Assembly: GCA_963710605.1 (NCBI GenBank)
Contig: CAVQBA010000004.1
Location: forward strand, 64,001 to 128,000
Length of the DNA stretch: 64,000 nt
Direction: 5' to 3'
DNA from: an uncultured cyanobacterium
GTDB lineage: Bacteria > Cyanobacteriota > Cyanobacteriia > Cyanobacteriales > Cyanobacteriaceae
The notes below the pieces were generated by a model, which did not search any database, had not been told where the DNA came from, and was given only the letters and a program-made list of their open reading frames with translations. Each line of letters starts with the position of its first letter. Positions within the stretch are counted from its first letter, which is position 1. The position numbers and the translations under genes were made by a program. Of the stretch, positions 14,290 through 50,225 are shown piece after piece.

Positions 14290-14351
14290 ATTTCCCTGAA
14301 TAGCTACATTATTTTAATCAATTTGCTGAAATAATACTAAAAATAAAATAG

Positions 14352-26011: not shown

Positions 26012-26558
26012 TTAAACAGCAATCGATTTAGATAAATATCCCATTTTTTCTAAACCAGCAAATACTTTATTGACACTCTCGTCTAACTCTTCTAAATCAG
26101 TACGACATTCAATCTCTGGGTTTGTAGGTGGCTCATAAGGATCGCTTATACCTGTAAACATTTTGATTTCACCCGATTCGAGCTTTTTTGTATAAGCCTT
26201 TTACGTCTCTATCTTCACAAACAGATAAAGGTGCATTAACAAAAACTTCCACAAAATCACCAATTTTTTCTTTTAACTCTTCTCTAATAGCACGATAAGG
26301 AGAAATAGCGGAGACAAGTACGATTACTCCGTTACGAGTTAACAATTGAGAAACAAAACCAATACGACGAACATTAGTATCTCTATCTTCTTTGCTAAAA
26401 CCCAAACCTTTGGTTAAATTAGTCCGTACGATGTCTCCATCAAGTACTTCTAGTTTGTAACCTTCTTCTCTTAATTTAGCTTCTACTTTTTCGGTGATTG
26501 TACTTTTACCTGCACCGCTTAATCCGGTAAACCATAGTGTTACGCCTTTTTGTTCCAT
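26012..26558 (-). CDS. cysC: Adenylyl-sulfate kinase (frameshift near 26180)
   Basis: [29 protein letters not shown]-terminus [26 protein letters not shown] continues in another frame to 26012. Confidence 0.95.
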
Positions 26559-26768: not shown

Positions 26769-27695
26769 TTAAGATTTGATTGATGATAGATTACCAGCTA
26801 ATATTTTCAAATAGTCGTGTAATCGATCGATTGTAGCTTCTTTATCATCTTGGCAATGTTCACATATTTGATTAAGATTATCTAAAGACTGAAATAATGT
26901 CTGTGCTTGATCATTAATTTCTTCACTTTTATCTTCTAATATTGGGGTGATAGATTCTAAGGAGTCAAATAATTCTTGATATTGTTCTTGTAACTCACTA
27001 GAGCTACTATCAAATAAAAGTGCGATCGCTTCTGTTATGTTTGTGATGATATCTTGACTTCGATCGCCTAAATTTTGGATTTCGGGTTTAATTTCAGCAA
27101 ATTGACTTAAAAAATCTTCACTTTGTTCGCTGATAAAACTTTTGACTTCCTCATCATAAAATTCATCAAGATTATCTTTTTCTTCAGTTAAAACTTCTTG
27201 ATAATTTTGCAATCCTCTGAGCATGACGTTATTAATAAAGTCACCTGTATTTTCTAAATTTTGTTCTAATTGCGGTTCGATTTCGTTAACTTTTTCGTTA
27301 AAAGAAGTGACAATTGTTTCTAACTCTTCTAACTCATCATTAATATCTTGTTTGCTATCTTGCATTTTACCCACAGCATCAACCATATCTTGTTTGATTT
27401 CGATCGTTGATTGTTCGTTTTGCTCGATAAAACCATCAATTTTAGTTTCTAGATTTTCTAATTGCTCTAATCGTGATTGAGTATGATTGGTAAATTGTGT
27501 TTCTAAACGATCGATTTGTCTTAATAATGATTGTGCCGAATCCATTAAACTCGTCCATTGCGCGTCCATTACCGAATCACTTTGAGTTAGTAATTCTTCC
27601 AAATCTTCAATGTTATCATTAGTGGCTTTTTTTTCGGCTTCAAAACTTAACAAATTTTCGTAAGCTGAGGCGACTATATCAATAAAAATAGGCAT
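26769..27695 (-). CDS. Acidic helical/coiled-coil protein D' (putative paralog of 31606)
   Basis: 308 aa, E/Q/D/L-rich; MDAQWTSLMDSAQSLLRQI aligns with FDNNWDELSTRADGLLERI. Confidence 0.8.
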   Translation of the reverse strand: MPIFIDIVASAYENLLSFEAEKKATNDNIEDLEELLTQSDSVMDAQWTSLMDSAQSLLRQIDRLETQFTNHTQSRLEQLENLETKIDGFIEQNEQSTIEIKQDMVDAVGKMQDSKQDINDELEELETIVTSFNEKVNEIEPQLEQNLENTGDFINNVMLRGLQNYQEVLTEEKDNLDEFYDEEVKSFISEQSEDFLSQFAEIKPEIQNLGDRSQDIITNITEAIALLFDSSSSELQEQYQELFDSLESITPILEDKSEEINDQAQTLFQSLDNLNQICEHCQDDKEATIDRLHDYLKILAGNLSSIKS

Positions 27696-27816
27696 TTTTT
27701 AAATTTTTTAAGATAATTTTGGTGAAAGGGCAAAGGTAAATTAAAAGTTAAGAGGCAAAAGGCAAGAGGCAAGAGATAGTTGATAATTTTTCTTTTTTCA
27801 TTCTCAATTCTTAAAC

Positions 27817-28749
27817 CTACTCTTCATTGATTTGTTTTAAGGTTTCAACCATGTCATCACAAGTTGTTTGTAAATTTTCAGTGTGAGTGATTATATTTTC
27901 TGTACCTTCTGCTAACAACTCTTGTAACTCTTCAATACGATGTTGTTGCTCATCAATCGGTGTAAAAGAATCACTAACTAGGTTATTAAATTGGTTATTA
28001 GCATCTGTCAAAGATGACTGGTGTTGTTCTAAATTAGAACCATGATGATCACTAAATTGCTCAACTTGTGCAATAATTTGTTCAGAATTAAGCTTAATAT
28101 TTTCTGTTAATCTAGTTTCAAGTTCAGATAACTCTTGCTCGAAAACGGCTTCTATTTCATCGTTAATGTTTTCTTGGCTTGATTCTAATTCCTCTTCTAC
28201 TAAACTAATTTGCTCTTGTACCAAATCTTGGAAAGAATTAATTTTTTGTCCTAAAATATTGATTTCTTGTTCGGTAGAATCCCAAGCGATATCGATCGTG
28301 TTATTATGAGTTTCTAAATTTGACCATAACTGATTAAAAGTACCCACTCCTTGAGCCAAAATTTGCAAATGATTATCACCCATCGTCTCTAACTGTTGTT
28401 CAAATTGCTCAAAATAATCATTAATCGCCTCCATCGGCTCGGTTAACTCCTCTCTCTGCTCAAGCATACTTCGGTTTAGCTGTCGTATTTTTGCCCCCAC
28501 TCTTACCATCTGTGTTTGTAGAGAAGATTGCTCTGTAGCAACAAGGTTAGGAAAACTTTGTAGTTTAGATTGTACTTCTTGTAATACTTCGATCGTATCA
28601 GCTTGTTTAGTATTATTTTCGGTAATAATTTCAGCTAGGTTTTCACGAACATCATTAAGTTTTTCTCTCATCTGACTTGACTCTTCGGCTAGACGAGATT
28701 TCACCTCAGAAATATATTTTAAGTTAAAGATTAAATCTTCGTAATTCAT
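27817..28749 (-). CDS. Acidic helical/coiled-coil protein C' (putative paralog of 32651)
   Basis: 310 aa; KQADTIEVLQEVQSKL aligns with KQAQVTETLGEVQGAL; same length. Confidence 0.8.
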   Translation of the reverse strand: MNYEDLIFNLKYISEVKSRLAEESSQMREKLNDVRENLAEIITENNTKQADTIEVLQEVQSKLQSFPNLVATEQSSLQTQMVRVGAKIRQLNRSMLEQREELTEPMEAINDYFEQFEQQLETMGDNHLQILAQGVGTFNQLWSNLETHNNTIDIAWDSTEQEINILGQKINSFQDLVQEQISLVEEELESSQENINDEIEAVFEQELSELETRLTENIKLNSEQIIAQVEQFSDHHGSNLEQHQSSLTDANNQFNNLVSDSFTPIDEQQHRIEELQELLAEGTENIITHTENLQTTCDDMVETLKQINEE

Positions 28750-28770
28750 GTTTTTAGTCCTCTAATTTGG

Positions 28771-30486
28771 TTAAATAGCATCAAAACTTTGTAATGTTAA
28801 AGCTGATTTTTCTAGTGCTTCATTGGTGTAATTAAGAGCTTTTTTGGTTAATTGAAGTTGTTCATCTGTATGCTCAGAAGAGTCTTCTGTTGATTTGCTA
28901 TAGTTATTAATACTTTGAATTAAAGCAGTCAGGTTATCGTTTATCGGTTCAAATTCGTCAAGATTATCAAGCATTTTTGCTAAAACAGTTTCGATATTTT
29001 CTAAACCAGAGGTATGAATTTCATTAACGAAATTTTCGACTGTTTCCAAACTATTTTCTTGTAAATTTTGTAACGCATCAGTCAAATTATCACGAACACG
29101 TTTTAAGTTTTCGCTTGCCTTTACTTCTTGCTTCTGAGTAATATCTGTTTGCCATTTATCTAAAAATTGACCTAACTGATTATCACCATCGTCTAATGAT
29201 TTAATTAAAGAAGTGACATTATTTTCGTTAGTTAGAATTGATGATTCTAGTTGCTCATTCATCGCCACTAACGATTGACGAAAGGGAGTAAATGAGTCTT
29301 CCATATTTTCAGCAACAGTAGCTAAATCTTGCGGCACAGAAACATCACTATCATCATTACTTGAATTATCACTTAATACTCTGCCTTCTAAAATACTAGT
29401 AATCAAATTCTCAACTTTAGCTAATCTGTCGGTTAGGTTTTGTTTGTCACTCGCTAATTGTTCACTGGTATTATTTTGAGTATCCAGACTTTCTTGATTG
29501 ACGGTATCTAAATCAGTCATTAAGCTGGCTAAAAATTCACCAAAATTATCAAATTCTTCCGTATTTTGGTTTTGACTCGAATCTAATTGCTCTTCATTTT
29601 CAGCTAATTCAGCTTCAAGCGTTTCGAGAAAATCATTTAATTGTTGATTAGATTGTTCAACTTCAGTAATTTCTTCTTCTGCTTGTTCGTTGGTATCATC
29701 AAATAAACCATTCATTTCTTCTAAACCAGTTTCCAAGCCACCTAGTTGTGATTCAATATCATCAACTTGCTCGGAGGTTTCTTCTGCACCACCGCTACTA
29801 CCACTACCACCGCCACTACCACCGCCTAGCCCACCGCCACTACCGCTACCACCGCCAGTTTCTGATGCGTCAGATTTAACAGAGGGTTTACCAGAGTCGC
29901 TAGTGCTTACACCACCGTTTTGACTACTTGTACCTGTTTCACCGCTATTTTTACCACCATCAGCAGATTTATTCTCAGGAGAATCATTCGATTTTTTATC
30001 GGCTGTTTGTCGATCGCTTCTACCAGAAACAGAGTTATCATCTTTATTATTACCTGCCGAATTTTTGTCTGAAGATGATTTATTGTTAGAATCTCTATCA
30101 GCTTTGGTACGATCGTTATCATTACTATCTGTTTGACTAGTTTTGTCTCCTGTAGCTGATTGTTTGTTGCCTAAATCATTTAATTTATTTTGGGCTTGTT
30201 GTATTTCTTTTTGATTAGGTAATTTGCCTTCGGCGACATCGGTTGCTACTTGCCCTAAATATTTACCAATATCTAAAGCTTGTGCTTGCTCATCACCGCC
30301 TAAGTCTTTAGCTAAAGCGAGTATATCTTGACTGTTTTGTTGTAATTCGGCACTAATATTTTTAACTTCGGTTGAATTAGCTTGATTACCATCTCCTTTC
30401 AAACCGAATCCGACTAGGCTTCCTAATACTCCTAAACCACCTAAACTAGAAGCGACTAATTTCTTTGCTCTTTCTGTAATTTCCAT
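28771..30486 (-). CDS. Acidic helical protein B' with N-terminal hydrophobic segment and Ser/Gly/Asp-rich linker (putative paralog of 33639)
   Basis: 571 aa; LVASSLGGLGVLGSLVGFGL; GGGSGSGGGLGGGSGGGSGSSGG; C-terminal ~335 aa resembles 33639. Confidence 0.8.
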   Translation of the reverse strand: MEITERAKKLVASSLGGLGVLGSLVGFGLKGDGNQANSTEVKNISAELQQNSQDILALAKDLGGDEQAQALDIGKYLGQVATDVAEGKLPNQKEIQQAQNKLNDLGNKQSATGDKTSQTDSNDNDRTKADRDSNNKSSSDKNSAGNNKDDNSVSGRSDRQTADKKSNDSPENKSADGGKNSGETGTSSQNGGVSTSDSGKPSVKSDASETGGGSGSGGGLGGGSGGGSGSSGGAEETSEQVDDIESQLGGLETGLEEMNGLFDDTNEQAEEEITEVEQSNQQLNDFLETLEAELAENEEQLDSSQNQNTEEFDNFGEFLASLMTDLDTVNQESLDTQNNTSEQLASDKQNLTDRLAKVENLITSILEGRVLSDNSSNDDSDVSVPQDLATVAENMEDSFTPFRQSLVAMNEQLESSILTNENNVTSLIKSLDDGDNQLGQFLDKWQTDITQKQEVKASENLKRVRDNLTDALQNLQENSLETVENFVNEIHTSGLENIETVLAKMLDNLDEFEPINDNLTALIQSINNYSKSTEDSSEHTDEQLQLTKKALNYTNEALEKSALTLQSFDAI

Positions 30487-30645
30487 GTTTAATAATACTT
30501 CGGCTTTACTTTAACTGACGCGGAAACTGAGCGGAGTCGAAGTTTAGCACGAGTTGCTCAATATAAATAAATAATTAATAAATAGACTTTACTATCTGGT
30601 TTTTAGGTTTAACTGTTTGTTAAAATGCACAAAAATTAAACAATT

Positions 30646-31521
30646 TTAAAAAGAAACATTTAATCTATTTTTATATGATTCTAAATTTTCTAATAAGTGT
30701 TCTAAACTATCTATATTTTCGTTGACATTTTCGCTTAAATCATTACTTTTTTTCTCAATTGTTTCTTTGAGCTGTTCAACTTGCTCTTCAATTCTTTGGC
30801 TATCACTAACTAATAGCTCTTTTAATTCACTTTGTAAACGTTGTTGAACAAATTCTTCTATTTGCTCTTCTTGTTCGTTTAAATCGTCTTGAAAGTTCTC
30901 TATTTGTTCATTAGCGATCGTGATTAAACTAGGTAAATAATCTTTAAACTCTTCAAGTTTGGCGAGTAAATTATCTTTAAAATCAGTTAGTTTTTCAGCT
31001 AGATTTTCTTTTTGTTGATTAAAACTCTCACGCCAATTGTCATTAGTAGTTCTTAAATTATCTAATTGATCTAAAAGTTCTTCATTGTATTCAATTAAGT
31101 CTGTTTCTAGATTTTCGATTCTATTTGACCATTGATTGATATTATCTTTTAAACTTTGAGTTGAAAGTTCAATTTGTCGATCGATCGAATTAATTGTAGC
31201 TTGAAAATCTTGAGTTTGTTCTTGAGTATTAGCCATTAATTGTTCGGCTGTTTCTTCAACTAAATTAGCTTGATTTTCTAATTGATTTAGTTTTTCAGAG
31301 GCTAATTCAATTTGTTCGTCTAATTGCGTTTCGATATTTAACATTACCTGTGCTAAATTACTAGTTAAATTAGTAGTTTGTTCAGTGACGTTGTTAATTG
31401 TTTGTTGTAAGTTTTCGATCGTGCGGTTAATATTACTAAAAGAGCCTGAAGAAACTTGAACTTTAGAGTTCATTAACTCCATTCTTTCAGTAGCAATCTC
31501 GATTAATTCGTTAATTTTCAT
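30646..31521 (-). CDS. Acidic helical/coiled-coil protein A' (putative paralog of 34673)
   Basis: 291 aa; INELIEIATER aligns with INALIEQADER. Confidence 0.8.
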   Translation of the reverse strand: MKINELIEIATERMELMNSKVQVSSGSFSNINRTIENLQQTINNVTEQTTNLTSNLAQVMLNIETQLDEQIELASEKLNQLENQANLVEETAEQLMANTQEQTQDFQATINSIDRQIELSTQSLKDNINQWSNRIENLETDLIEYNEELLDQLDNLRTTNDNWRESFNQQKENLAEKLTDFKDNLLAKLEEFKDYLPSLITIANEQIENFQDDLNEQEEQIEEFVQQRLQSELKELLVSDSQRIEEQVEQLKETIEKKSNDLSENVNENIDSLEHLLENLESYKNRLNVSF

Positions 31522-31605
31522 AAGCAGAAATGGAAAATGAATGTAGAATGAATAACAATTAATAATTAATAATATGTAACTATTAACTATTAACTATTAA
31601 CTATA

Positions 31606-32511
31606 TTAGAAACGCTCAAGTAACTCTTTAACCTCCTCAAAAACGCCTAACGCAGTATTCAAACCGATATTCGTCGTATCCATCGCTGTCATTACAGTAT
31701 CTTTAGTGGTATCGACTGTGCCACCTAAATCAGAAACTAATTCACTCAAAGTAGTTAAAGCTGATTCTATATCTTCGGCAGTGGACATTAATTCTTCAAA
31801 TTGATCTTCTACACTACCTGTAAAGTCTTCTAATGCTGAGTTAGCCGATTCTTGAGTGGAGTTAGCTTGCTCTTGTGCTTGAGTACTTACATTCTCAGTG
31901 AATTCTTCAATTTGAGAGCTTAACTGAGATACCATTTCATTTACACGAGACACGGCTTCATCAGCTATTTGTTGTTCTGCTTCAACGGTTTGAGCTTCTA
32001 TTTCCTCTTGATTATTATTCATCGCTTCGGTGAAGTCGTTTTCTAAATCAGATTGTGATTCACTAATCGTTTCAGCTAAATCCGATTGTACTTCTTCGAC
32101 TTTCGTTTGCAGACTTTCGACGGTTTCACGTACAGTATTAAATACCTCTTGTAATTCTGATGATTTACTGTCGCTATCTTCACCTAAGGCGGTTAATTCA
32201 CCAACGGTTTCTTCTACTGTTTGACTGGTTTGCGATTGTATTGATTGAGTATTTGATTGTAAGTTATCTAAACCTTGACGTAAATTTTCACTTTCGCTAT
32301 CTAACTCATCTCTAGCACCAGAAATACGTTCTAATAAACCATCTGCCCTAGTTGATAACTCATCCCAGTTGTTGTCGAATTGCTCACTAACGGCCGCTAA
32401 TTCTTCTCTTGCTTGATTAAGATTTTCTTCAGCTTCATCAGCACGATTAAGCAATTCTTGAAGTTGGGTTACTGTTTCGGCAATACTTTGTTCTAAATCT
32501 ACACTAGCCAT
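31606..32511 (-). CDS. Acidic helical/coiled-coil protein D
   Basis: 301 aa; heptad-like, no Pro; AAGAGG RBS-like sequence upstream. Confidence 0.85.
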   Translation of the reverse strand: MASVDLEQSIAETVTQLQELLNRADEAEENLNQAREELAAVSEQFDNNWDELSTRADGLLERISGARDELDSESENLRQGLDNLQSNTQSIQSQTSQTVEETVGELTALGEDSDSKSSELQEVFNTVRETVESLQTKVEEVQSDLAETISESQSDLENDFTEAMNNNQEEIEAQTVEAEQQIADEAVSRVNEMVSQLSSQIEEFTENVSTQAQEQANSTQESANSALEDFTGSVEDQFEELMSTAEDIESALTTLSELVSDLGGTVDTTKDTVMTAMDTTNIGLNTALGVFEEVKELLERF

Positions 32512-32650
32512 GATTTTTTCCTCTTAAATAATAAATAATTGTCTTGAAAAATTGAATGTTACGTTTTAGCTTTTAGTTGTGGGGTGTTAGGTTTTAGTTG
32601 TTAATAAATTTAATTCTTAACTTTTAACTCTTAACTCTTAACTGTTAAGG

Positions 32651-33583
32651 CTATCCGAAATCAACACCAAACTTATCGGCGGCACTTCTAACTGAATCAA
32701 CACCGTTTTCGATCGGCTCTTTAAAACCATCTAATTGATCAATCAAATCACCAATTACTTCTCTGACACCTGCTGATTCTTCCTCCGCATCGGTTACTTT
32801 TTCCACCATGTCATCGATCGATGATGTTACTTGCCCAATAGCGGAGGCGATTAATTCTTGTAACTCAGTTTCGATTTCGGTTTGAGCTTTATCCATCAAA
32901 CCATCAACACCTCCTGATAATGCTTCAGAAGTTGACCCTAAAACATTACTAAAGCTTTCACCAACAGAGGCAAATTCTTCTGCCATGGTTTGAATATTGG
33001 TGGTGACAGTTTCTTGATTTTGTTCTACTTGCTCAGTAAAACTTTGGGCTTCTTCTTCCATTCTGCTACTGACATCTTCTAATTTGTCTCGCATTGTCTC
33101 CATCACTGCTAAAGCACTTTCCATGGCTGAAGCTAATTCATCTTGATTACCTTGAATTGCTTCTTGAGCGGTATTCAATATTGCCATCGCTTCTTCTTCC
33201 GCCATTTTGGTTGTGGAATTATCTTCCTCGATTTGAGTTTGATATTGACTAATTTTTTCGCTAGTAGCCGCTACTTGCTCCATTATTTGCTCTTTAGATT
33301 CATTTAAGAAACTTTCTAATTCATTAGCTGTTTCTTCAAAGCTAGTCACGTTTTCTTGGGTTTGAGTTTGGTTTTCGGCTATTTCTTCTTGCATTTCGCC
33401 TAATGCACCTTGAACTTCTCCTAGGGTTTCGGTTACTTGTGCTTGTTTTTCTTGAACATTACTAACTAATTCATCTGCTTCTGCTTGTACTTCTTCGGCT
33501 AATGTCATTAGGTTTTCTAAACGTTCGGGAAATTCGATGATTAGTTGAGATAATAGATTGAGGCTATCGCTTAATTCACTCAT
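32651..33583 (-). CDS. Acidic helical/coiled-coil protein C
   Basis: 310 aa; E/Q/A/M-rich heptads. Confidence 0.85.
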   Translation of the reverse strand: MSELSDSLNLLSQLIIEFPERLENLMTLAEEVQAEADELVSNVQEKQAQVTETLGEVQGALGEMQEEIAENQTQTQENVTSFEETANELESFLNESKEQIMEQVAATSEKISQYQTQIEEDNSTTKMAEEEAMAILNTAQEAIQGNQDELASAMESALAVMETMRDKLEDVSSRMEEEAQSFTEQVEQNQETVTTNIQTMAEEFASVGESFSNVLGSTSEALSGGVDGLMDKAQTEIETELQELIASAIGQVTSSIDDMVEKVTDAEEESAGVREVIGDLIDQLDGFKEPIENGVDSVRSAADKFGVDFG

Positions 33584-33638
33584 GATTATTAATTGGGTTA
33601 AAGATTGTGGTTATTGAATTGAGATTATGTAAATTAAT

Positions 33639-34631
33639 TTAGAAATCAAAGGCATCAAGTACAGCATTGATTGCACCAATTGCGACTTTAGCGGCGGCGA
33701 TGTAAGGTAGGATAGGACTAATACCACCTGTAACTGATGTACCTACACTTGTCATGGTGATTTGTTCGACCATTTCGCTGGCTAAGGATGCTACAGTGTT
33801 TTCGATCGCATCTTCAAAGGTTTCTTTTAATTCCTCTTTGGTAGTTTCTCCAGCGTATTCAGCGGTGTTGGTTAGTATTTCAGTAAATCTTTCTTTCAAT
33901 TCGTCGGCTAAATCTAAGTTTTCGTCGTTGAATGAAGTTAAAAATTCATCAAAATTACCAGTTAATTCTTCTAACTGCCCTGTAATTTCGGTAAGTTGCT
34001 CTCCTATTAGGTTGCCGCTAAAATCACTGAGTAATGTATCAAGGCTATCTTTGACTGTTTCACCAACATTGGTGGCGGTTTGTTCAAATAATTCTTCGGT
34101 TTCTTCTTGGGCAGAAGTTAAGTTGTCTTCCAAACCAGAGGTGTTTTCAGTGAAGGTGTTGAAAAATTCTTCGGCAGTATCACCATTTTGACTTAAGGAA
34201 TCTTCTAAGGAGGTTATTGTTTCCATCAATTCGCCAAAAGTTTGAGCTAATGCTTCGACGACACCATCTAATTCACTTTGCTGATTATCAACTTCGGTTT
34301 CGACTTCACCTTTAGTTTGCTCTACTGATTGATTTATCTCTTGTAATCTTTCTTGTAAATCATTAAGTGCTTCTTGAAAAGCTGTCATTTCACTAATCAT
34401 TGCTTCAGAATCTTGAGCAAATTCTTCTTGAGAACTTTCAAATTCTGTACTAGCATTGTCTAAAGTGTTGTTGACTTCTTCTTGACAGTTATCTAAAGAT
34501 TCGTTGGTTTCTCCTAACTGTTGAGTGAAATCTTCCATTTGATTATTGGCGATATCTAAGGCTTTGAGTAACTCTTCTAGTTTCTCTACCGACTCGTCAA
34601 TATTTTGCTCCATTGCTTGGGCTTCAGCCAT
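33639..34631 (-). CDS. Acidic helical/coiled-coil protein B with hydrophobic C-terminus
   Basis: 330 aa; ends VGTSVTGGISPILPYIAAAKVAIGAINAVLDAFDF; AAGGAG RBS upstream. Confidence 0.85.
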   Translation of the reverse strand: MAEAQAMEQNIDESVEKLEELLKALDIANNQMEDFTQQLGETNESLDNCQEEVNNTLDNASTEFESSQEEFAQDSEAMISEMTAFQEALNDLQERLQEINQSVEQTKGEVETEVDNQQSELDGVVEALAQTFGELMETITSLEDSLSQNGDTAEEFFNTFTENTSGLEDNLTSAQEETEELFEQTATNVGETVKDSLDTLLSDFSGNLIGEQLTEITGQLEELTGNFDEFLTSFNDENLDLADELKERFTEILTNTAEYAGETTKEELKETFEDAIENTVASLASEMVEQITMTSVGTSVTGGISPILPYIAAAKVAIGAINAVLDAFDF

Positions 34632-34672
34632 GATTTTTGCTCCTTAAATAAATAAAATTACTAATTAATTTG

Positions 34673-35569
34673 TTATCCTAAGACTGTTTCGATCGCATCT
34701 AAGACAGGTTTAATTTGTTCAATCAAATCAGTCACTTCATCAACTTGATCGACAATGTCACCGATACTACCGTCTAATAAGTCTCCTACTTCTTCTCCTG
34801 CATCTTTCAAAAAGCCCATGCCATCGCTTAAAGCACCTGAAGATTCACTTAATTCACCTGTCAATTCCTCGATGAATTTAGCTGTTAAAGCACTCATTAC
34901 ATCACCTGCTTGAGACTCTAGATTACTGACTAAATTTTCTGCCCCTTCTTGACTAGCTGATGCAACGTCTTCAAATTCTGTTTGTAAGGTTTCTAATTTG
35001 TCATTTAACTCTTGAGCTAAAGTGCTAAACTGTTCCATCATGTTTTCAGTTTGGCTTTGGAAACTTTCGGTTGTACTACCAACTTGTTCTTTTAACTGCT
35101 CGATATTACTGTTAGCAGTTTCTTGATATGTTGCCATTTGCTCTTGCATCTGGTCGATATTTTGCCCATAATCATCAAAAGCTGATTGACTATCTTCTGT
35201 TTGGGTTTCAATTTCTTCGACAATTGCTTCTTTGCGTTCAATAAATTCTTGTAAACGTCCTTGAAAATCTTCCATCGATTGGTTTAGTTGTTCGCCTACT
35301 TCACTAATCTGTGATTCAAATTCACCCATCACCCCACGAGTATTTTCTAACTCTGTTTCGAGGTTACTTTCTGCTTCTTCTAACTCGGTTAGCATTGCTT
35401 CCCATTTAGCTTGAGATTCTTCTCCTGCTGTTTTGAGGTTTTCGGCAATTTCGGTTGCTTTCTCGACGATTTGCTCTACTTGCTCGAAGGCTTTTTCTCC
35501 TTCTAATATTAAACTTTGAGCCCTTTCGTCTGCTTGTTCAATCAAGGCATTAATTTCATTGGTAGCCAT
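34673..35569 (-). CDS. Acidic helical/coiled-coil protein A (first gene of the putative operon)
   Basis: 298 aa; heptad-like; AAGGA RBS-like sequence upstream. Confidence 0.85.
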   Translation of the reverse strand: MATNEINALIEQADERAQSLILEGEKAFEQVEQIVEKATEIAENLKTAGEESQAKWEAMLTELEEAESNLETELENTRGVMGEFESQISEVGEQLNQSMEDFQGRLQEFIERKEAIVEEIETQTEDSQSAFDDYGQNIDQMQEQMATYQETANSNIEQLKEQVGSTTESFQSQTENMMEQFSTLAQELNDKLETLQTEFEDVASASQEGAENLVSNLESQAGDVMSALTAKFIEELTGELSESSGALSDGMGFLKDAGEEVGDLLDGSIGDIVDQVDEVTDLIEQIKPVLDAIETVLG

Positions 35570-36154
35570 AATCGGTTATTCCTTTTTTAGCATTCTGTTA
35601 GTATATAGGTCTAATATTTCGGGGTATGCAATTTTTTTAATTAAAAATTTTTTCTAAGCTAATTTAAATAGATATTTTTACTTTTGTAGCAAAAACGATC
35701 GATTGAATACCCTTGATTTAGTTAGTTGTTTCGATTCCTAAATAGTTAATACTATAATCTACGAATTTGGTGATAAAAGTATTAGTTGTCGATTGTTTTA
35801 CTGATTGTGGATATATTTTAATTCGATCGTTTGAAAATGATCCTAAATCGAAAAACATTGTAATAATTCATAATAAATAACACCCTGTCACCGAGCCACT
35901 ATCAATGATTAATTATTAATTGTCAATTATCAGTTATTAATTATTAACTATCTTTGATATTTTGGTTAATGACTGTTATCGTAACGATACAATTGAAGCT
36001 ACTGTACCTGAGATTAACAGATAAGATATCTATATCTAAGACAAAAATTATTTTCTTTACTATCTTAAATTCGCTATTTTGAATGAAGGTAATCAATTAA
36101 TAAGCAATTTTTAATTGTTTTTGCATATTGCCAAAAAGTATAACCAATAAATAA

Positions 36155-37615
36155 ATGGATATGGTAATACAAAATATCATTGACAAATTTTCAACTTATA
36201 TTCAAGTTAAACAACAAGGTAACAACTATTTTGTTCCTATTTATTTAACTGATGTTAAGTTAAAAAAAACTATATCTTCTCACTTACAATCATTTACTAA
36301 TGATAAAGAAGAAGACTGTATTCGTCATTTTTTACGATCGTTAAAAAAATCTAACTATCAAGATGTAACTACTAAACAATTGATTGTTTGTTATTTACAA
36401 AAAGCTTGTTGGTATGCCTCGCAAAAAGTAAGCCGAGAGTTGAGTCAGACTAGTAATCTAAATTTGCATTATTCTCATGAAGATTGTTTTATGATTGCTT
36501 GTGAGTTGGCATTACAACCGAGAAAATTACTTGATAATTTTAATTTTGAGACTAAAGTATCGGTACAAACTTATGTACAAACTGTATTAAGCAGAATGAT
36601 TAAAAATCAAATTGTGACACAGTTAAAAGCTAAATCTTTAAAATTTTCTGATCAAGGTTTACTAAAAAATACTAGTAAAAGTCAATTAGATGAATCACTT
36701 TCTACTTATGGTATAAATCAAACTAAAATGACTGAGTATGGTATATTTTTTCAGTCTTTTAAAGACTTATATTATACTTTATTAGATTTGAGTTTAGACT
36801 CAAGTAATAATAGTGATAAAAATTTAATTAGTACTTTAAATCAAGCACAAACTAAAGCTCTTAACGATCGTATTCAACAACAATTTAAACGTTTAGGTTT
36901 ACCTCAAAAAAATCTATCAACTGAGGAAATTCAACAAAATCTTAGTTTTTGTGTACAAGTAATTCGTAACTATCAAAATCGTACCTTTGTGGATTTAGAT
37001 AATGTTCATCAAGATTTAACTACAACTGCTAATTCTCTTGATTTATTATCCCAAAGTGAAGAATATAAACAGTTTGAACAATTACGTAATATAGTAGTCA
37101 AAGAATTTGAACCTTTAGATTTAGCTCATAAAGTTATTTTACTTTGGTTAGGATTAGAGATAAATCAAGCTGATTTTAGAGAACTTTTGCAATGTGAACA
37201 ACAATTTCAAGTTTCTCGTCAATTAACGAAATATCTTAAAAATATTCTCAAAGCAATCGTTCAAAAAGTCTTAACAAATTCTAGTCAATTAACTAACAAA
37301 GAGTTAAATAAACTTTGTCAAGAAAATACTAAAGTTATTAAAGATTATTTACAATTATATAGTCAAGATTATTTTATTAATTTGTTGATGAATATTGTTA
37401 ATAGTAATGATGATTTAATCAAAAAATTAATCTTAGAAATTAGTAATAATTATTTTATTATCATAGTTGATTTACTAAAAAATAAAATTGATGAAAAACT
37501 AGAAATAAAAATACAACAATTTGCTTGTGCTACACAAAGACTTAACTATTTTGTATTTCAAACTCTAAGTAACAACAAAGCATTATTGATTAGCCAACAA
37601 AAAATAGAGGAGTAA
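36155..37615 (+). CDS. Sigma-70-like transcription factor of the DUF1822-associated cyanobacterial type
   Basis: 486 aa; YLQKACWYAS, DCFMIA, SDQGLLK, C-terminal HTH-like LGLEINQADFRELL..QQFQVSRQL; 4 bp upstream of DUF1822 gene. Confidence 0.65.
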   Translation: MDMVIQNIIDKFSTYIQVKQQGNNYFVPIYLTDVKLKKTISSHLQSFTNDKEEDCIRHFLRSLKKSNYQDVTTKQLIVCYLQKACWYASQKVSRELSQTSNLNLHYSHEDCFMIACELALQPRKLLDNFNFETKVSVQTYVQTVLSRMIKNQIVTQLKAKSLKFSDQGLLKNTSKSQLDESLSTYGINQTKMTEYGIFFQSFKDLYYTLLDLSLDSSNNSDKNLISTLNQAQTKALNDRIQQQFKRLGLPQKNLSTEEIQQNLSFCVQVIRNYQNRTFVDLDNVHQDLTTTANSLDLLSQSEEYKQFEQLRNIVVKEFEPLDLAHKVILLWLGLEINQADFRELLQCEQQFQVSRQLTKYLKNILKAIVQKVLTNSSQLTNKELNKLCQENTKVIKDYLQLYSQDYFINLLMNIVNSNDDLIKKLILEISNNYFIIIVDLLKNKIDEKLEIKIQQFACATQRLNYFVFQTLSNNKALLISQQKIEE

Positions 37616-37619
37616 AAAA

Positions 37620-38870
37620 ATGAGTATTACGAGCAAAGATTTAGCTATTATATATCCAGAGCAACTATTAATCCCCTTTAGCCAAGACGATAAACAACAG
37701 GCATGGCAAAAGGCAACACAAAATAATCAAGACAACAAAGCAGTTATCTGGAATAGTTTTCTTAATCATCTTTGTTTGCAATATATACCTTATTTAAAAT
37801 CCGATATTACTGATAATGTAACGATACAAACTTGGCAATCAGAAGCAAAATTAAACCAAATTTGGCAATTAGTAAATGGTAATGCGATCGATATTGTATC
37901 AGAAAACTCAACCACAACTAGATTAGTTTTAATCCCCACTAATGAAGAGACAGACGAATTAAGAGTGCCTAGAGAATGGTTAGATTTACCAAATTGGGTT
38001 GGTAATTATTATATAGCGGTGCAAATCAACGAACAAGAAAATTACCTGACAATTCAAGGATATACCACCTACGAAGAGTTAACTGAATATGGAAATTACG
38101 ATGCGATTGATGAAACTTATAGTCTTCCTCTCACTAATTTAACTGAAGATTTGACATCAATGTATATCAGTTTAGAATTATACCCTTATCATCGCCCTCA
38201 ACTAAAAAACGAATATATTCTAGATAGTGATAAGCTACCAGAAATTGTTAGCCAATTGAAATCAACCACAATGACATTACCTCGTTTAGAAATTCCTTTT
38301 ACTGATTGGGGGGCAATCATTGACAATCCAGAAACTAGATATTTTTTCAGTGAAGATAAATATAACCAAAATAATAAAGAAGAGTCAATCGTTAATAATG
38401 ATAAAGTAATTAAAGACAATCAAGGTGTAAAATTATTACAATGGCTAGAAGACGCAGTAACATCAGGTTGGCAAACTTTAGATAGTTTAATTAATCAAGA
38501 GCAACTAAACTTAGCCTATAACTATCGTCGTAGTAATAGTGATAATAGCGTTGAAGCAGTAAAACTAGTTGAGATACCAACAAATACAGGTATGCAAACT
38601 CTAGCTTTAGTTATTCATTTAGAAAAAACTCCAGAAGGCAAATTTACCCTCAAAATACAACTCAATTCTACTGCCGAAAAATCGACTCTTCCCAGTCAAC
38701 TCAAACTACAAATGGTATCTTATTCACAAAAAATTATTCAAGAAGTAGAAGCTAGAGATAATGATAATTCAATTCAATTAAAACAATTTACCACCCGTAG
38801 CGGTCAAAAATTTTTGATTAACATTGTTCAAGAAAAATTTACTTGGGTAGAACAATTTTCTGTAAGTTAA
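37620..38870 (+). CDS. DUF1822 family protein
   Basis: 416 aa; WQLVNGNAI, RLVLIP, ELRVPREWLDLPNWVGNYYIAVQ, LLQWLE..GWQTLD, EARDNDNSIQLKQF. Confidence 0.88.
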   Translation: MSITSKDLAIIYPEQLLIPFSQDDKQQAWQKATQNNQDNKAVIWNSFLNHLCLQYIPYLKSDITDNVTIQTWQSEAKLNQIWQLVNGNAIDIVSENSTTTRLVLIPTNEETDELRVPREWLDLPNWVGNYYIAVQINEQENYLTIQGYTTYEELTEYGNYDAIDETYSLPLTNLTEDLTSMYISLELYPYHRPQLKNEYILDSDKLPEIVSQLKSTTMTLPRLEIPFTDWGAIIDNPETRYFFSEDKYNQNNKEESIVNNDKVIKDNQGVKLLQWLEDAVTSGWQTLDSLINQEQLNLAYNYRRSNSDNSVEAVKLVEIPTNTGMQTLALVIHLEKTPEGKFTLKIQLNSTAEKSTLPSQLKLQMVSYSQKIIQEVEARDNDNSIQLKQFTTRSGQKFLINIVQEKFTWVEQFSVS

Positions 38871-39268
38871 AATTCAATTTTTATTAGTACCAAAAACGGT
38901 ATTAATAACTAGTTTTGTTATGTATTTATCAAATTCTAAAATACAATATTTAGCGATAACTATAGTTATTTCGATTAAGATTTAGACAGTATTAATAACA
39001 CTTAAAATTATAAGCCCTCACCCCGCTTTGAAATAAATTACAAGGCTAACAGCAAGACGTTTAATAAATCAAACTCAAATTCAATATAAAAAATATCTCT
39101 CAAGTTATTTCAAGTAACTATAAATACTCTAAATATTACTATATTAACTACTAAATTAATTAATATGATTTAATATTATCAAGTAAATTTGCCACTGTAG
39201 TTATCAAGAAATCAAATAACAACTACTTAATTATCAATTGTCAATTATCAATTATCAATTACAAAACT

Positions 39269-41098
39269 ATGTCTGGCTTAGTTGAAATTAATTTAGGAAA
39301 AGGTAATTTAGAAGAAGGCTTTGATTTAGTCACGGTAAAAATAGATAAAAAGACTCAATGTACAAGTAGTCTTCCTCCTTCACCAGAGTTACAACAAATA
39401 TATTATCGTTGGTTATCCTTTTACCAATCACTATATCAGTCTCGTCGTTTTGCTATCAGACAAAGACAACCAGTAGCGGTAGTAAATAATTTTGAGGATG
39501 ATGATGATGATGACTTTGAAATTGATGAAGATGATATTACTCATGTTTGTGAAGAAGATTTTACTGACATCTGTCTTCAATTAGAAAATAGCCTTAATCA
39601 ATGGTTAGGAAATAACAGTTTTGTCAATACTGAAAATAAACTTAGACAACAATTACCACCAGAAAAAGAACTTATTTTTGTTTTAGAATCAGAAGATTAT
39701 TTAATCAAAAAAATACCTTGGCATTTGTGGCAATTTTTCGATGATTATCCCTTAACAGAAATTAGTTTAAGTAATCTTTATTTTAAGCCTAGGGCGACTA
39801 TTTTTAATAAAAGTAAGAAAGTTAGAGTTTTAGCTATTTTAGGTGATTCTACAGGAATTGATGTCCAAAGCGATCGTCAAATTTTAACTAATTTAGAAAA
39901 TACAGAAACGTTATTTTTAGTAGAACCAACTATTGATGAATTATACACTCATTTGTTAGCTGAAAACGGTTGGGATATTTTGTTTTTTTCTGGGCATAGT
40001 GAAACTAATATAGCTGAAAACTATACAGGTTATATGTATTTAAATCAACAAGAAAAACTAACTATGGAGGAGTTAAAAAATGGTATCAAAAAAGCAACTG
40101 ACAATGGTTTACAATTAGCTATTTTGAATTCTTGTGATGGTTTGGGTTTGGGTAAACAATTAGCTGATTTATCTATTCCTCAAACTATTTTAATGCGAGA
40201 ATCGATCGCTGATCAAGTAGCACAACAATTTTTACAATCTTTTTTGGACATTTTTTCCCATGGACAAAGTTTATATTTATCAGTTAAAGAAGCTAGAGAA
40301 AAACTAAAAACGATCGAAAATCAATTCCCAGCGGCGAGTTGGCTTCCTGTTATTTGGCAAAATCCTGCTGTTATACCCCCTGTGTGGCAAGATTTATGTT
40401 TTACCCCAACAACTCTCAAACGTAAAATAAATCAAATTTTATCTGCTAGTGTCGCAGTCTTTAGTTTAATCATCGGTGTCTTTAGCTTAACTAATCAAGC
40501 TGAAGCCAGAGAATTTGAGCAAAATAATTCTTTAATCGATTTAGGTAATTATTTACAACAACAAACTTTAAATTTACAGCAGTTTAATAATTATTTAAAA
40601 GCAGATTTTAACGAGGAATATCTGGATAATCAATTAATTGAATCAATTGATAGTATTAGCAGTCAATTACAAGATAATAGTTTACCTTCAATATCAGATT
40701 TGAATTTTTTAAATGATAGTTTTAATCAACAACTACAAGTAGATAATACTCTTAGTTTGACTGAAAATGTCAACGATGGGCAAGTTAATAATAAGGTAAC
40801 TAATCCGCAATCAACTCAGAATTTAGAAAACCTTAATCAGATTAATTCATCATCAGAAACTCAGCAATTGTTAAATTCAGTTGAGCAGATAAGTGATAGT
40901 TTAGAAGAATTTTCGGCGGATATAGATAACTTAAATATAACGATCGAGCAAATCAATGAGAATAACAATCTCTGGTTAGAAGATATTAACAAAATCGATC
41001 GAGATTTACAAGCATATAAAGAAGATTTGGCAGTTAAAATGAATGATAACGAAAAAATGCTCACTGAATATTCTGAGCTATTAAAAAGAATACTATAA
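39269..41098 (+). CDS. Membrane-anchored CHAT (caspase-like) protease with C-terminal helical domain
   Basis: 609 aa; LPPSPEL, IPWHLW, FFSGHS (His), ILNSCDGLG (Cys), SWLPVIWQNP; hydrophobic segment ILSASVAVFSLIIGVFSL. Confidence 0.88.
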   Translation: MSGLVEINLGKGNLEEGFDLVTVKIDKKTQCTSSLPPSPELQQIYYRWLSFYQSLYQSRRFAIRQRQPVAVVNNFEDDDDDDFEIDEDDITHVCEEDFTDICLQLENSLNQWLGNNSFVNTENKLRQQLPPEKELIFVLESEDYLIKKIPWHLWQFFDDYPLTEISLSNLYFKPRATIFNKSKKVRVLAILGDSTGIDVQSDRQILTNLENTETLFLVEPTIDELYTHLLAENGWDILFFSGHSETNIAENYTGYMYLNQQEKLTMEELKNGIKKATDNGLQLAILNSCDGLGLGKQLADLSIPQTILMRESIADQVAQQFLQSFLDIFSHGQSLYLSVKEAREKLKTIENQFPAASWLPVIWQNPAVIPPVWQDLCFTPTTLKRKINQILSASVAVFSLIIGVFSLTNQAEAREFEQNNSLIDLGNYLQQQTLNLQQFNNYLKADFNEEYLDNQLIESIDSISSQLQDNSLPSISDLNFLNDSFNQQLQVDNTLSLTENVNDGQVNNKVTNPQSTQNLENLNQINSSSETQQLLNSVEQISDSLEEFSADIDNLNITIEQINENNNLWLEDINKIDRDLQAYKEDLAVKMNDNEKMLTEYSELLKRIL

Positions 41099-41478: not shown

Positions 41479-42429
41479 TCAATTATCAACTGTCAATTTA
41501 TCCTCTTCTTCTTTTTCCCAATCAATTGCCCCATTTTCATTGCTAAATTCAATCGATGAAACATTTTCATCTTCATCACTTAACCATTCACTCCAATCAT
41601 CACCTATTTCTTCATCATCAGTAACTTCTTCAACCACAATCTCTTCGCTAACTGCCTCTTCTTCTGCGGATAAATCTCCCATAAATTCATCCCAGCTTTC
41701 TTCTGTTTGTTGTTGTTGCTCATCAGAAATAACTACACTTTCTTCATCAATCGTATCTAAAATTATTTCATTCTCATTTTCATCAATCGTATCCAATATT
41801 ATTTCATTCTCATCTTCATCATTAATAGTATCTAATATTATCATCTCATTCTCATCTTCATCAAGAGCATCCAAGATTATTTCGTTTTCTTCTTCTACTA
41901 TTATCTCATCTAATAACATTTCGTTATCACTATCAATTGGCGAATTTATTTGCTCTTTATTTTCATCTAACCAATTTTCATCATCATTATCTTCTGCTAA
42001 ATCAAAATCGATAATCTCACTGTCTTGAGTTTCACTTTTTTCTATTAGATTAGACTTATTAAATTCAAAAGAAACAGATTTAGTTAAAGGAATATCTTTT
42101 AAATTATTTCCGGCTAATATTTCTAAAATTTTGACTAAAACTTCTCTATTTTTCTGCCATACTTGATAAACATTTCCTAATTGTTGAGTATGAAATTTAG
42201 TTAAATCATTTTTGCTACTAAGAATTTCTGAGTTACTAGCAGTGGTGGTTAATCCTTTTAATAAGTTTATTTGTGTTTCAATAAATTCAACCGATTCTTG
42301 TGTATCTTTATCTGTATCTGTTTTGATACTAGTTAATTTAAACTTTAAACTATTACTAAATGCCACTAAAAGAGCCGCTGAAAAATCTTTTTTAGCTAAT
42401 AATTGTTTAATTTCTTCTTGACTATTCAT
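41479..42429 (-). CDS. Hypothetical protein with very acidic repetitive C-terminus
   Basis: 316 aa; N-terminus resembles 42495 protein; ENEIILDTIDE-type repeats. Confidence 0.8.
   Translation of the reverse strand: MNSQEEIKQLLAKKDFSAALLVAFSNSLKFKLTSIKTDTDKDTQESVEFIETQINLLKGLTTTASNSEILSSKNDLTKFHTQQLGNVYQVWQKNREVLVKILEILAGNNLKDIPLTKSVSFEFNKSNLIEKSETQDSEIIDFDLAEDNDDENWLDENKEQINSPIDSDNEMLLDEIIVEEENEIILDALDEDENEMIILDTINDEDENEIILDTIDENENEIILDTIDEESVVISDEQQQQTEESWDEFMGDLSAEEEAVSEEIVVEEVTDDEEIGDDWSEWLSDEDENVSSIEFSNENGAIDWEKEEEDKLTVDN
41741..41930 (-). repeat. Imperfect 33-39 bp tandem repeat encoding (D/E)ENE(M)IILD(T/A)(I/L)DE
   Basis: About five degenerate units visible in DNA and protein. Confidence 0.8.
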
Positions 42430-48571: not shown

Positions 48572-50143
48572 TCAACTGTTGTTCATAATCTGTTTAAGTA
48601 GATTTTGAGTATAAGGATGATTACTTAATTCGGAAACTCGATCGTCTTCGATCGCTTGTTTTAAAAACTTAACGAAATTACTATATATAATCTTAGTATC
48701 AGAGTGTTGTGTTCCTAAGAGTGTTTCATCTAACTCTAAGGCTTGAAGATATAAAGGTTCTGCTAACTCGTATTTTCCTTGTGAACCATATAGTCTAGCT
48801 AAATTATCGAGCGAACTTGCTACATAAGGGTGTTGTTCTCCTAAGAGGGTTTTTCTTAACTCTAAAGCTTTGAGGTACAAAGATTCTGCTTGTTCATATT
48901 TTCCTTTTAATGAATAAAGTAAAGCCAAATTATTGAGCGAACTAGCCACATGGGGGTGTTGTTCACCTAACAATGTTTTTCTTAACTTTAAGGCTTGGAA
49001 GTACAGTAGTTCTGCTAACTCGTATCTTCCTTGTGATTTGTAAAGTAAAGCTAAGTTATTAAAGGAAGTTGCCACATCGGGATGTTGTTCTCCTAAGAGT
49101 GTTTTTCTTAACTCTAAGGCTCGAAGAAATAATGGTTCTGCTTCTTTGTATTTTCCTCGTGAATAATATAATCCAGCTAAATTATCAAGCAAACTAGCCA
49201 CATGGGGATGTTGTTCTTCTAAAAGTGTTTGATATAACTCTATAGCTTGGACGTATAAAGATTCTGCTTGCTCATATTCTCCTTGTAAATCATATAGTAA
49301 AGCTAAATTATTAAGGGAAGTTGCCAAGTCTAAATCTAAATTTAATTGCTTTTGCAAAGCGATCGCTTTTTGAGAATATTCAATACTTAAATTTAATTCT
49401 TCATTATAGTTTTCACAACCTTCTGTTTCAATTCTATTAAGATAAATTTGCCCTAAACTACTATACAAACTAGCTAATTTTTTTTCATCTTTTGTTTGAG
49501 GATTTGTTTCTAAATGTTTAACTAAAGCCTCCAAATCTTGCAAAGGAATTAAAGAAGACTCTTGATTATCAAAATTCAATAATTTTTCTTCTTCAAAAAG
49601 AGAGAATTGCTCTTGAAATCGATCTAAACAAATATAAGATTTGATATTCGACACAAAACGAAAAACACCTTTACGCCAACTCCAAAAATCAGGAGCATTT
49701 TTCTGTAAATTAACTTCAATACTATTATTAATCCACAATACAATCGAATAAGGAAATTCTCGAAATGCTTCCCTCGTCCATTGTAAGTAACCAATAAAAC
49801 GATCGAGTTCAGATTTTTCCTGATTTAAACCGAACTTCAACAACTTTTCTATTCCTGTAACAGTAATTACCGCTTTTTTATTAGCGTTTAACTTTGGATT
49901 GTCGGCAACTAATTTTTCTAAATGATTGCGTAAACTTAAATTATCTGAGTTAATTTCGACTTGATAGGTAAGGAAATTTCCTTTTAACTCTTGTTCGTAC
50001 AAAGTAATAATCTCTTTTCTTACACTATCTCAATCGCAGACACAAATTAAGATATTTAAGTTTTCCTGATTCGTTTCTAAAGAAACCATCAAATCGTCAT
50101 AAGTATCTTTATTTTCTGGACTAATAGTTAACTCTTGTTCCAT
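48572..50143 (-). CDS. TPR-repeat protein with N-terminal degenerate NTPase-like domain (frameshift near 50030)
   Basis: LQWTRE, APDFWSWR; 42-aa repeats HPxVAxSLxNLAxLY..G.Y..AE.LY..AL; probable start MEQELTISPEN at 50143. Confidence 0.88.
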
Positions 50144-50225
50144 GATTTTTACTTTTTTTAAGTACTTTTTAATCAAATAAATTTAAGAAGATAAAACTAC
50201 TAAAAATAATTGAGACGGATAAATG

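Follow-up and report, generated by a model that had tools for sequence, protein, structure and literature searches.

A 64,000-nucleotide stretch of contig CAVQBA010000004.1 (GenBank assembly GCA_963710605.1) from an uncultured cyanobacterium, referred to here as the window, encodes an operon of eight long helical proteins (H1-H8) that lies divergent to a triad of genes for a sigma-like, a DUF1822 and a CHAT protease-like protein. Gene conservation, paralogy, helix prediction, a bundle model and recurrence of the linkage in other genomes were computed. The reading that is favoured, with a probability of about one half, is that the operon gives rise to one or two hetero-tetrameric coiled-coil rods, that the adjoining triad acts as a dedicated transcriptional switch in this lineage, and that toxin cargo hints at a role in conflict or at the envelope. 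The host genome (3.93 Mb on 7 contigs, 84.9 % complete) carries the window on its contig C4.

The eleven open reading frames (ORFs) are unbroken, and the ORF map reproduced exactly the coordinates of these genes and of the divergent spacer in the original prediction, which was made from the letters and their translations:

26769-27695, minus strand: H8, 308 aa, diverged copy of H4
27817-28749, minus strand: H7, 310 aa, diverged copy of H3
28771-30486, minus strand: H6, 571 aa, in the H2 position of the second set
30646-31521, minus strand: H5, 291 aa, diverged copy of H1, opens the second set
31606-32511, minus strand: H4, 301 aa, paralogue whose conserved tail is rich in Thr
32651-33583, minus strand: H3, 310 aa, paralogue
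33639-34631, minus strand: H2, 330 aa, paralogue whose C-terminal tail is hydrophobic and conserved
34673-35569, minus strand: H1, 298 aa, opens the conserved H1-H4 cassette
35570-36154: divergent spacer, AT-rich, 585 bp, flanked by H1 and the sigma-like gene
36155-37615, plus strand: sigma-70/ECF-like protein, 486 aa, very divergent
37620-38870, plus strand: DUF1822 protein, 416 aa, starts 4 bp past the sigma-like gene
39269-41098, plus strand: 609-aa protein with an EACC2-like N-terminus, a CHAT domain, one transmembrane segment and a Q/N-rich helical C-terminus

The H1-H4 cassette and its diverged second set

All eight H proteins are acidic and poor in proline (pI 4.05-4.19, Asp + Glu 19-24.5 %, Pro 0-1.3 %). 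In Pfam and NCBIfam no family was matched above cut-off and no enzyme family was found; the sub-threshold matches were to generic long-helix families only (apolipoproteins, SMC, ZorA tails). Composition and the absence of an enzyme family agree with the earlier description of acidic, Pro-poor helical proteins without catalytic motifs.

The H genes are real genes, as orthologues were found in the same order in relatives. The orthologues of H1-H4 share 51-73 % identity (51-66 % for H3), and those of H5-H8 23-41 % (23-40 % for H5). Orthologues of H1 were identified in 7 of 40 relatives at 54-68 % identity, and in one relative from another family at 27 %. Within the same family the whole order H1-H8 is kept; distant genomes keep H1-H2-H3-H4 only, and this order was the same in all loci examined.

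By profile comparison H1-H4 are four paralogues. Alignment of H1 with hhalign gave probabilities of 98.2 % for H2 (E 5e-14), 98.6 % for H3 (E 1.4e-15) and 98.5 % for H4 (E 1.5e-15), and the alignments were colinear across 244-273 columns. Each of the four families has its own conserved C-terminal tail, such as IGDIVDKV..IKPVLD in H1 and the Thr-rich VDTTKDT..TAMDTTN.GL in H4. The tail of H2, VGTSVTG.ISPILP.I.AAKVA..AINAVLDAF, is kept in 15 orthologues and is hydrophobic (Kyte-Doolittle window above 1.5 at residues 303-325).

For the assignment of H5-H8, the proteins were scored against hidden Markov models (HMMs) of the H1, H2, H3 and H4 families. H5 reached 71.5 bits with the H1 model and at most 39 bits with the H2-H4 models, H7 reached 45.9 bits with the H3 model (next best 36.6), and H8 reached 64.3 bits with the H4 model and at most 23 bits with the others. 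The window copy of H6 was ambiguous, and its orthologue in the related genome G015 scored best with the H2 model (39.4 versus 18 bits). H6 consists of an N-terminal hydrophobic segment (residues 10-29), a low-complexity stretch rich in Ser, Gly, Asn and Asp, and a C-terminal helical part. As H5, H7, H8 and the G015 orthologue of H6 are nearest to H1, H3, H4 and H2, respectively, the second group of four repeats the order of the first, and judged from these scores the minus-strand operon is a tandem duplication of H1-H4 with a diverged H5-H8. The window therefore contains one canonical and one diverged set of the cassette, that is, four paralogues of ~300 aa in conserved order and with tails of their own. 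Of the proposed eight-subunit operon the eight genes are present, but by the family HMMs they group as two sets of four that have diverged from each other, and not as eight different subunits.

In a sample of the order, 28 of 401 genomes (13 of 142 genera) carry H1, and in a sample of the phylum 8 of 401 genomes (7 of 156 genera) do so. An exhaustive H1 profile search yielded 253 cluster representatives at E ≤1e-10, most of them 292-300 aa long and aligned end to end, and a word-indexed homologue search returned 1 protein. Named H1 homologues are few, mostly cyanobacterial and labelled as hypothetical proteins; one H1 homologue bears a precomputed PF28217 assignment.

A predicted four-stranded coiled-coil rod

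With an alignment of 81 sequences, AlphaFold2 predicted H1 as one helix from residue 2 to 264, followed by a C-terminal helix from 271 to 297 (pLDDT 78.9); the prediction with 7 sequences was poor (pLDDT 51.7). In H1-H8 a single hydrophobic period of 3.55-3.64 residues (3.57 in H1) dominates over 250 residues with ~20-80 times the median power, indicating a coiled coil with regular stutters. When the H family profile was searched against the PDB, generic helical proteins only were found.

Residues 1-245 of each of H1-H4 were then modelled as four chains with custom alignments in three runs and three controls, with H4 as the scored partner. Each run scored 0.67 and the best of the three controls 0.33; in the calibration of the score, 116 of 157 solved complexes attained this mark, as against 2 of 215 mismatched pairs. 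The runs agreed in at least 94 % of contacts with a partner pLDDT of at least 80, and the contacts were parallel, in register and spaced by 3-4 residues over residues ~3-236. The model supports binding among H1-H4 without showing it, and backs the earlier idea of a multi-subunit helical assembly. In this model the H1-H4 cassette probably builds a four-stranded, hetero-tetrameric coiled-coil rod, and arithmetic from the ~260-residue helix gives it a length of roughly 35-40 nm. Because H2 ends in a hydrophobic tail and H6 starts with a hydrophobic segment, the rod is probably attached to the membrane via these two elements.

The sigma-like, DUF1822 and CHAT genes

The DUF1822 protein was identified beyond doubt as such by PF08852 (197 bits versus a cut-off of 25, E 4.8e-58), as had been proposed, and its gene is the sole copy in the host genome. 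The profile of this family, when compared with solved structures, gave no sequence relation at E up to 5. The sigma-70-like assignment is weak: TIGR02937 is matched by 9 of the 16 rows of the family alignment (best E 7e-13), but the window protein itself stays below the cut-off (31.6 versus 42.9 bits) and has no Pfam sigma domain. One row of the alignment was a HetZ-related protein, which was taken out of the sigma HMM before neighbours were counted.

The third protein matched PF12770 (45.5 bits versus a cut-off of 24). Its GHS (His243) and NSC (Cys289) motifs were invariant in an alignment of 6 homologues, and a single hydrophobic segment (residues ~386-411) lies behind the protease domain, so that the CHAT protein with intact His/Cys motifs and one hydrophobic segment was found as predicted. 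Residues 1-376 are conserved and homology ends at about residue 380; many matches start at residues 1-8. The conserved N-terminus (residues ~1-100) is a candidate EACC2 domain. For the C-terminal 224 aa no family was matched. The C-termini of CHAT homologues vary, with a transmembrane segment and helical region in the window and WD40, FHA-WD40 or CHASE2 domains elsewhere.

Proteins in which a constant EACC2 N-terminus and a caspase domain are joined to a C-terminus that varies greatly have been described by Kaur, Iyer, Burroughs and Aravind (eLife 2021;10:e70394, PMC8195603), who report ECF-like sigma and DUF1822 genes as their neighbours and propose that peptidase activation induced by a stimulus leads to a transcriptional response. 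By this gene content the window triad is an EACC2-caspase/ECF-like sigma/DUF1822 system as predicted there in 2021, and hence not new.

DUF1822 was present in 37 of 41 relatives. In 20 of 20 further loci from relatives, DUF1822 comes immediately after the sigma-like gene; the CHAT gene is next in 4 of the 20 and within ~2 kb in one more. In PADLOC no match was found for the triad, and the H proteins matched coiled-coil noise only (ZorA tails, LmuB, JetC, at most 37 bits).

Neighbours of the cassette and its linkage to the triad

Neighbours were counted in 32 cassette-bearing genomes, in flanks of up to ~10 kb that were often cut by contig ends and with one annotation pipeline; the duplicate loci L008, L009, L010, L012 and L014 were left out. 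Ser/Thr kinases are the most frequent partners (22/32), followed by a ~720-aa membrane FHA protein, FHA720, which is the commonest single partner after the kinases (18/32). GluR0-type ligand-gated channels were found in 12 and FHA-WD40 proteins in 11 genomes, toxins with a common N-terminal helix in 5, and a HetZ-related protein in 5, all from one genus. The sigma-like gene lies beside the cassette in 7, DUF1822 in 8 and EACC2-CHAT in 4 of the 32 genomes, and a Peptidase_C14 caspase takes the CHAT position in 2 more. By chance ~0.65 DUF1822 neighbours would be expected in 32 genomes, calculated from ~3.2 DUF1822 matches per genome. The commoner partners, namely kinases, FHA proteins and GluR0, as well as the toxins, were not visible from the window.

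The linkage to sigma/DUF1822 spans four families and five genera in three arrangements: the window (family f1), G326, G673, G679 and G588 (f18, two genera), G552 and G503 (f2), and G032 (f14). The triad is divergent from the cassette in the window, G326, G679 and G588, where in f18 the third gene encodes a Peptidase_C14 caspase. In G552 and G503 all genes are on one strand in the order FHA720-H1-H2-H3-H4-sigma-DUF1822-CHAT-kinase, and in G032 DUF1822 and a CHAT-WD40 gene are located 9 kb away at the contig end.

Six cassette-linked sigma proteins, together with one unlinked protein, form one clade (SH-aLRT support 99 in a quick tree) in which the window protein is included. With one clade and a pairwise identity of only ~30 % within it, the linkage is old and was kept through rearrangements. 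Further ties to the partners of the cassette could be observed. In f2 the CHAT domain is fused to FHA-WD40, which elsewhere is a stand-alone neighbour of the cassette. Contig L021 carries the closest sigma orthologue (59 %), DUF1822 (57 %) and what is left of a CHAT gene, and behind these come GluR0, a kinase and FHA-WD40. The host genome has GluR0 on contig C6 and a kinase/FHA-WD40 pair on C4, ~390 kb from the operon.

Several of these loci deserve a separate description. FHA720 (for example L012, 13979-16141) is composed of an N-terminal helical part, an FHA domain (~123-194), two hydrophobic segments (~566-621) and a C-terminal coiled coil; a dynamin-like identity was considered and is not supported, since FHA is the only domain recognised. 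The L021 locus (1523-5088, a metagenome contig) is a decaying triad with the sigma-like gene split in two ORFs and a CHAT remnant of 182 aa. In five genomes of one genus (L044-L047 and L049) a 391-aa gene stands behind H1-H4, either directly or past an insertion (e.g. L045, 12096-13271), and an AAA ATPase and a DUF1257 protein are encoded upstream. This 391-aa gene was considered as sigma-like and rejected, as it encodes HetZ-related protein 2 (NF037965, E 5e-171). The group-2-type sigma-70 factor of G015 (L006, 9324-10499, minus strand) has complete regions 1.2, 2, 3 and 4 and falls outside the divergent sigma-like family. COP23 genes lie beside cassettes in L020 (12230-12898) and in L053 (11932-14887), the latter together with two trypsin-like peptidase genes, one of them with TPR. 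In L056 a PemK/MazF-type toxin gene (8759-9142) separates H3 from H4 and is read from the other strand.

Toxin genes within cassettes of relatives

Toxin genes were found inside the cassettes of G032, G319, G326, G679 and G588. In G032 a PT-HINT and Ntox24 protein, followed by a small gene, is encoded between H2 and H3. The toxin of G319 lies in the same gap, is 60 % identical to the G032 toxin over the first 100 residues, has a different C-terminus and is followed by a SUKH immunity gene. In G326, G679 and G588, Ntox44 and other toxin-like proteins are encoded behind H1 and H4 copies.

These toxins have in common an N-terminal helix of ~30 residues. Searched in all loci and the host genome, its HMM matched these toxins only, with no match in the host genome or to the H proteins. 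The 105-residue N-terminus occurs in the protein database on ~25 cyanobacterial proteins with varied toxin families, two of them named polymorphic toxins, and its second half alone on many other toxins. In the 401 genomes of the order, all three full-length matches to this domain are located inside cassettes.

Weighing of the explanations

The regulatory steps that we infer for the window start with a signal, which would be sensed via the variable, membrane-anchored CHAT C-terminus and would activate the caspase-like domain. Once active, this domain would separate the sigma-like protein from DUF1822, its partner; the freed protein could then direct transcription across the divergent spacer and drive the rod operon. 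The original prediction casts DUF1822 as an anti-sigma factor, which CHAT would cleave. In other genomes, signalling by Ser/Thr kinases, by FHA proteins and through a ligand-gated channel may replace the triad at the cassette or act alongside it. Given these connections and the toxin and immunity genes in relatives, the rod most likely serves as output scaffold in a regulated system of conflict between cells or of the envelope.

A number of observations weigh against this picture. In the flanks fetched, 24 of the 32 cassette genomes have no sigma/DUF1822 gene, and none of the 20 other sigma/DUF1822 loci has a cassette; therefore the triad is not needed for the cassette. The closest cassette-bearing relatives mostly have GluR0 and a kinase divergent from H1, and in G015 a group-2 sigma factor of the ordinary kind is found there, together with a TrkA-N protein. 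Since the linked sigma proteins are one clade, the linkage may have arisen once, and the genome counts are then not independent. The sigma-like family profile had 0 matches in the PDB, in addition to the sub-threshold sigma call. A consensus promoter scan gave 65 sites versus 65.9 expected, no more than chance; H1 upstream regions could not be aligned across genera, and 2 common -35/-10-type dyads were found in the sigma-linked H1 upstream regions versus 1.2 ± 1.1 in shuffles. Predictors pair coiled coils easily, one control still reached 0.33, and the four-chain job with its custom alignments differs from the setup in which the score was calibrated. As the host genome has no toxin of the type described above, the conflict role is borrowed from relatives. 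Taken together, the recurrence with sigma/DUF1822 in 7-8 of 32 genomes and the absence in the rest lead to the conclusion that the linkage is real but optional; the predicted linkage of triad and helical genes in other genomes holds for 6-7 of these and fails for the remaining 24 and for the 20 other triad loci.

A different view of the same data is that the adjacency has no regulatory meaning: the cassette would be a membrane-associated coiled-coil scaffold, cytoskeleton-like or for envelope stress, controlled by Ser/Thr phosphorylation through the kinases and FHA proteins, next to which the triad landed by rearrangement. Kinases, FHA720, FHA-WD40 and GluR0 are each commoner neighbours than the triad, the conserved Thr-rich tails of H4 and H2 could be FHA ligands, and the positions of GluR0 and of the kinase/FHA-WD40 pair elsewhere in the host genome point to rearrangement around the operon. 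A chance adjacency is, however, difficult to reconcile with a recurrence in four families and varied arrangements, with sigma proteins of ~30 % identity that belong to one clade, and with the CHAT-FHA-WD40 fusion and contig L021, which tie the triad to partners of the cassette; this view is therefore judged unlikely. Somewhat less is to be expected from the proposal that the helical proteins are exported substrates or carriers, with toxins docking by their N-terminal helix on the H1-H4 bundle and the complex being exported as in LXG/type VIIb systems. The toxin genes do occupy fixed places (the H2/H3 gap in G032 and G319, behind H1 and H4 copies in G326, G679 and G588), their N-terminal helix was found in cassettes only, and in one locus the SUKH immunity gene follows. 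Yet the H proteins have no signal peptide, the loci share no conserved gene for a secretion ATPase or a channel, a search of the 84.9 %-complete genome for an FtsK/SpoIIIE ATPase was negative, 27 of the 32 cassette genomes have no such toxin in their flanks, and the toxin-helix HMM does not match the H proteins, which makes export quite improbable.

Two further explanations concern the helices alone. Stress-protective amphipathic proteins that coat membranes or droplets without a defined complex (apolipoprotein-, LEA- or phasin-like) would account for the best sub-threshold Pfam and PDB matches, which are to apolipoproteins A-I/A-IV and ApoLp-III, and for the score of the sll1863 stress family (31.1 bits versus a cut-off of 35). 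Such matches are generic for long helices, however, a period of 3.55-3.58 fits stuttered coiled coils and not apolipoprotein repeats, for which it would be 3.67, and four paralogues with fixed length, fixed order and conserved tails of their own argue for a defined hetero-complex, so that a coat of this kind is very unlikely. Least probable, and hardly tenable, is a multi-component alpha-pore-forming toxin of the ClyA/Hbl/Nhe/Mak type, an option raised in the original prediction. A multi-gene set of all-helical ~300-aa proteins would fit, and weak matches to Bacillus_HBL and MakE were seen, but these fail the cut-offs by far (PF05791, 16.6 versus 29.1 bits; NF049873, 15-15.6 versus 360). Moreover, there is no internal hydrophobic head or tongue (maximal Kyte-Doolittle 19-mer at most 0.94, except at the H2 and H6 termini), no signal peptide, and a single straight helix is predicted instead of a folded bundle.

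The reading of a rod operon with a dedicated triad switch is therefore retained. It can be extended, tentatively and with considerable doubt, to the view that a new toxin-deploying apparatus, centred on cyanobacteria, has the H1-H4 rod at its core. Toxins would dock by their N-terminal helix on a membrane-anchored rod of 35-40 nm. Its assembly would be under the control of a sigma factor released by the caspase, or else of kinase/FHA signalling coupled to a ligand-gated channel, and the window would represent a toxin-free, duplicated form with the switch.

Other features of the window

The window has a GC content of ~0.26-0.38, as in a low-GC cyanobacterium, and its annotation places GUN4 and PsbP genes in the vicinity. 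Convergent with the CHAT gene, a 316-aa protein (41479-42429, minus strand) with 29 % Asp + Glu and repeated DENEIILDTIDE-like units is encoded, for which no match was found in Pfam, NCBIfam or with the H HMMs. On the other side of the operon, an adenylylsulfate kinase ORF (26169-26558, minus strand, 129 aa) covers positions 1-129 of a 152-position model and may be truncated. A DEAD-box helicase is apparently split into 62118-62780 and 62831-63682 (minus strand), with DEAD in one part and Helicase_C and the DeaD dimer domain in the other; the split at 62118-63682 could be a frameshift or a pseudogene. Stretches without ORFs of at least 150 aa (~3769-7480 and ~11485-14614) suggest gene decay in the window. 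Conflict-type genes are present as well, namely a TPR protein adjoining a KAP/NACHT-like P-loop NTPase (48572-51527, minus strand) and a GmrSD-type restriction endonuclease (59942-61561, plus strand).

Significance

If the extended reading of a toxin-deploying apparatus is true, the rod operon would be the first concrete target operon for sigma/DUF1822/CHAT systems. The triad is common in cyanobacteria, and in the literature covered no output or experimental test of it is reported. Its repeated tie to one defined operon makes the pathway from protease to sigma factor testable there. The four-gene cassette is a conserved set of no known family with a testable predicted architecture, and it is tied, unexpectedly, both to polymorphic toxins and to signalling parts of eukaryotic type, namely Ser/Thr kinases, FHA, WD40 and a channel of the glutamate-receptor type. 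If the link to toxins holds, a trafficking mode would be added for bacterial antagonism, in a phylum little studied for it. No description of the cassette, the predicted rod, its tie to the triad, the kinase/FHA/GluR0 partners or the embedded toxins was found in family libraries, solved structures or the literature searched, which did not extend to the supplementary tables of the 2020-2021 surveys. The combination had been put forward as undescribed; this stands within that scope for the helical operon and not for the triad, which is published (Kaur et al., 2021, PMC8195603).

Comparison with known systems

In the Craspase of type III-E CRISPR, the TPR-CHAT protease Csx29 cleaves Csx30, which holds the sigma factor RpoE. 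The logic proposed here, in which a caspase-like protease frees a sigma factor from its partner, is alike, and the resemblance of the triad to Craspase is an analogy only. A CRISPR effector-sized ORF is missing from the window, where the largest ORF (877 aa) encodes MutS. Neither a gRAMP/Cas7-11 effector nor a Csx30-like substrate was recognised, as no ORF is longer than that and the DUF1822 profile had no match among solved structures; structures of Csx30 are present in the PDB.

For the predicted rod, the parallel four-helix bundles of SNARE proteins offer a comparison, as these are also made up of four different paralogous helices, parallel and in register, one of which has a C-terminal hydrophobic tail. 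The H helices are ~4 times longer, and no homology was seen, the only matches being to designed SNARE mimics with E 6e-4 or weaker.

The kinase and FHA partners resemble type VI secretion, which is controlled by threonine phosphorylation through the kinase PpkA and Fha1: in both cases the genes of a toxin-linked multi-protein apparatus have those for a Ser/Thr kinase and an FHA protein at their side. Type VI components are absent here, and the apparatus consists of coiled-coil proteins. Helical partner proteins likewise accompany LXG toxins in type VIIb secretion, and the LXG/WXG100 systems share with the cassette the helical partner genes that flank a toxin gene and long helical bundles as the handled unit. 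Compared with WXG100 proteins the H proteins are three times longer, and the genome yielded no ATPase of the FtsK/SpoIIIE type. A type VII substrate (WXG100/LXG) was considered and rejected, with PF06013 at 17-21 bits (21.1 at most) versus a cut-off of 27.3 and PF01580 without a match in the 84.9 %-complete genome.

The toxins in the cassettes of relatives are like those of polymorphic toxin systems in their constant N-terminus, their varied C-termini (Ntox24, Ntox44, Ntox28, deaminase and others), PT-HINT and SUKH. Toxin and immunity features of this kind were found in G032, G319, G326, G679 and G588, in contrast to the window, which has no toxin of that type. Among the trafficking modes listed in the accessible text of Zhang et al. 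(Biol Direct 2012;7:18), none is based on four long coiled-coil proteins.

Closest to the triad are the EACC2-caspase systems (Kaur et al., 2021). They share with it the constant N-terminus, the caspase-like domain, the variable C-terminus, the sigma-like and DUF1822 genes directly upstream and the occurrence in cyanobacteria, and differ from it in the CHAT C-terminus, which in the window is a transmembrane segment with a helical region and not CHASE2 or WD40. No target genes are named in the accessible text on these systems; the window triad is linked to the H cassette, as are those of 6-7 other genomes.

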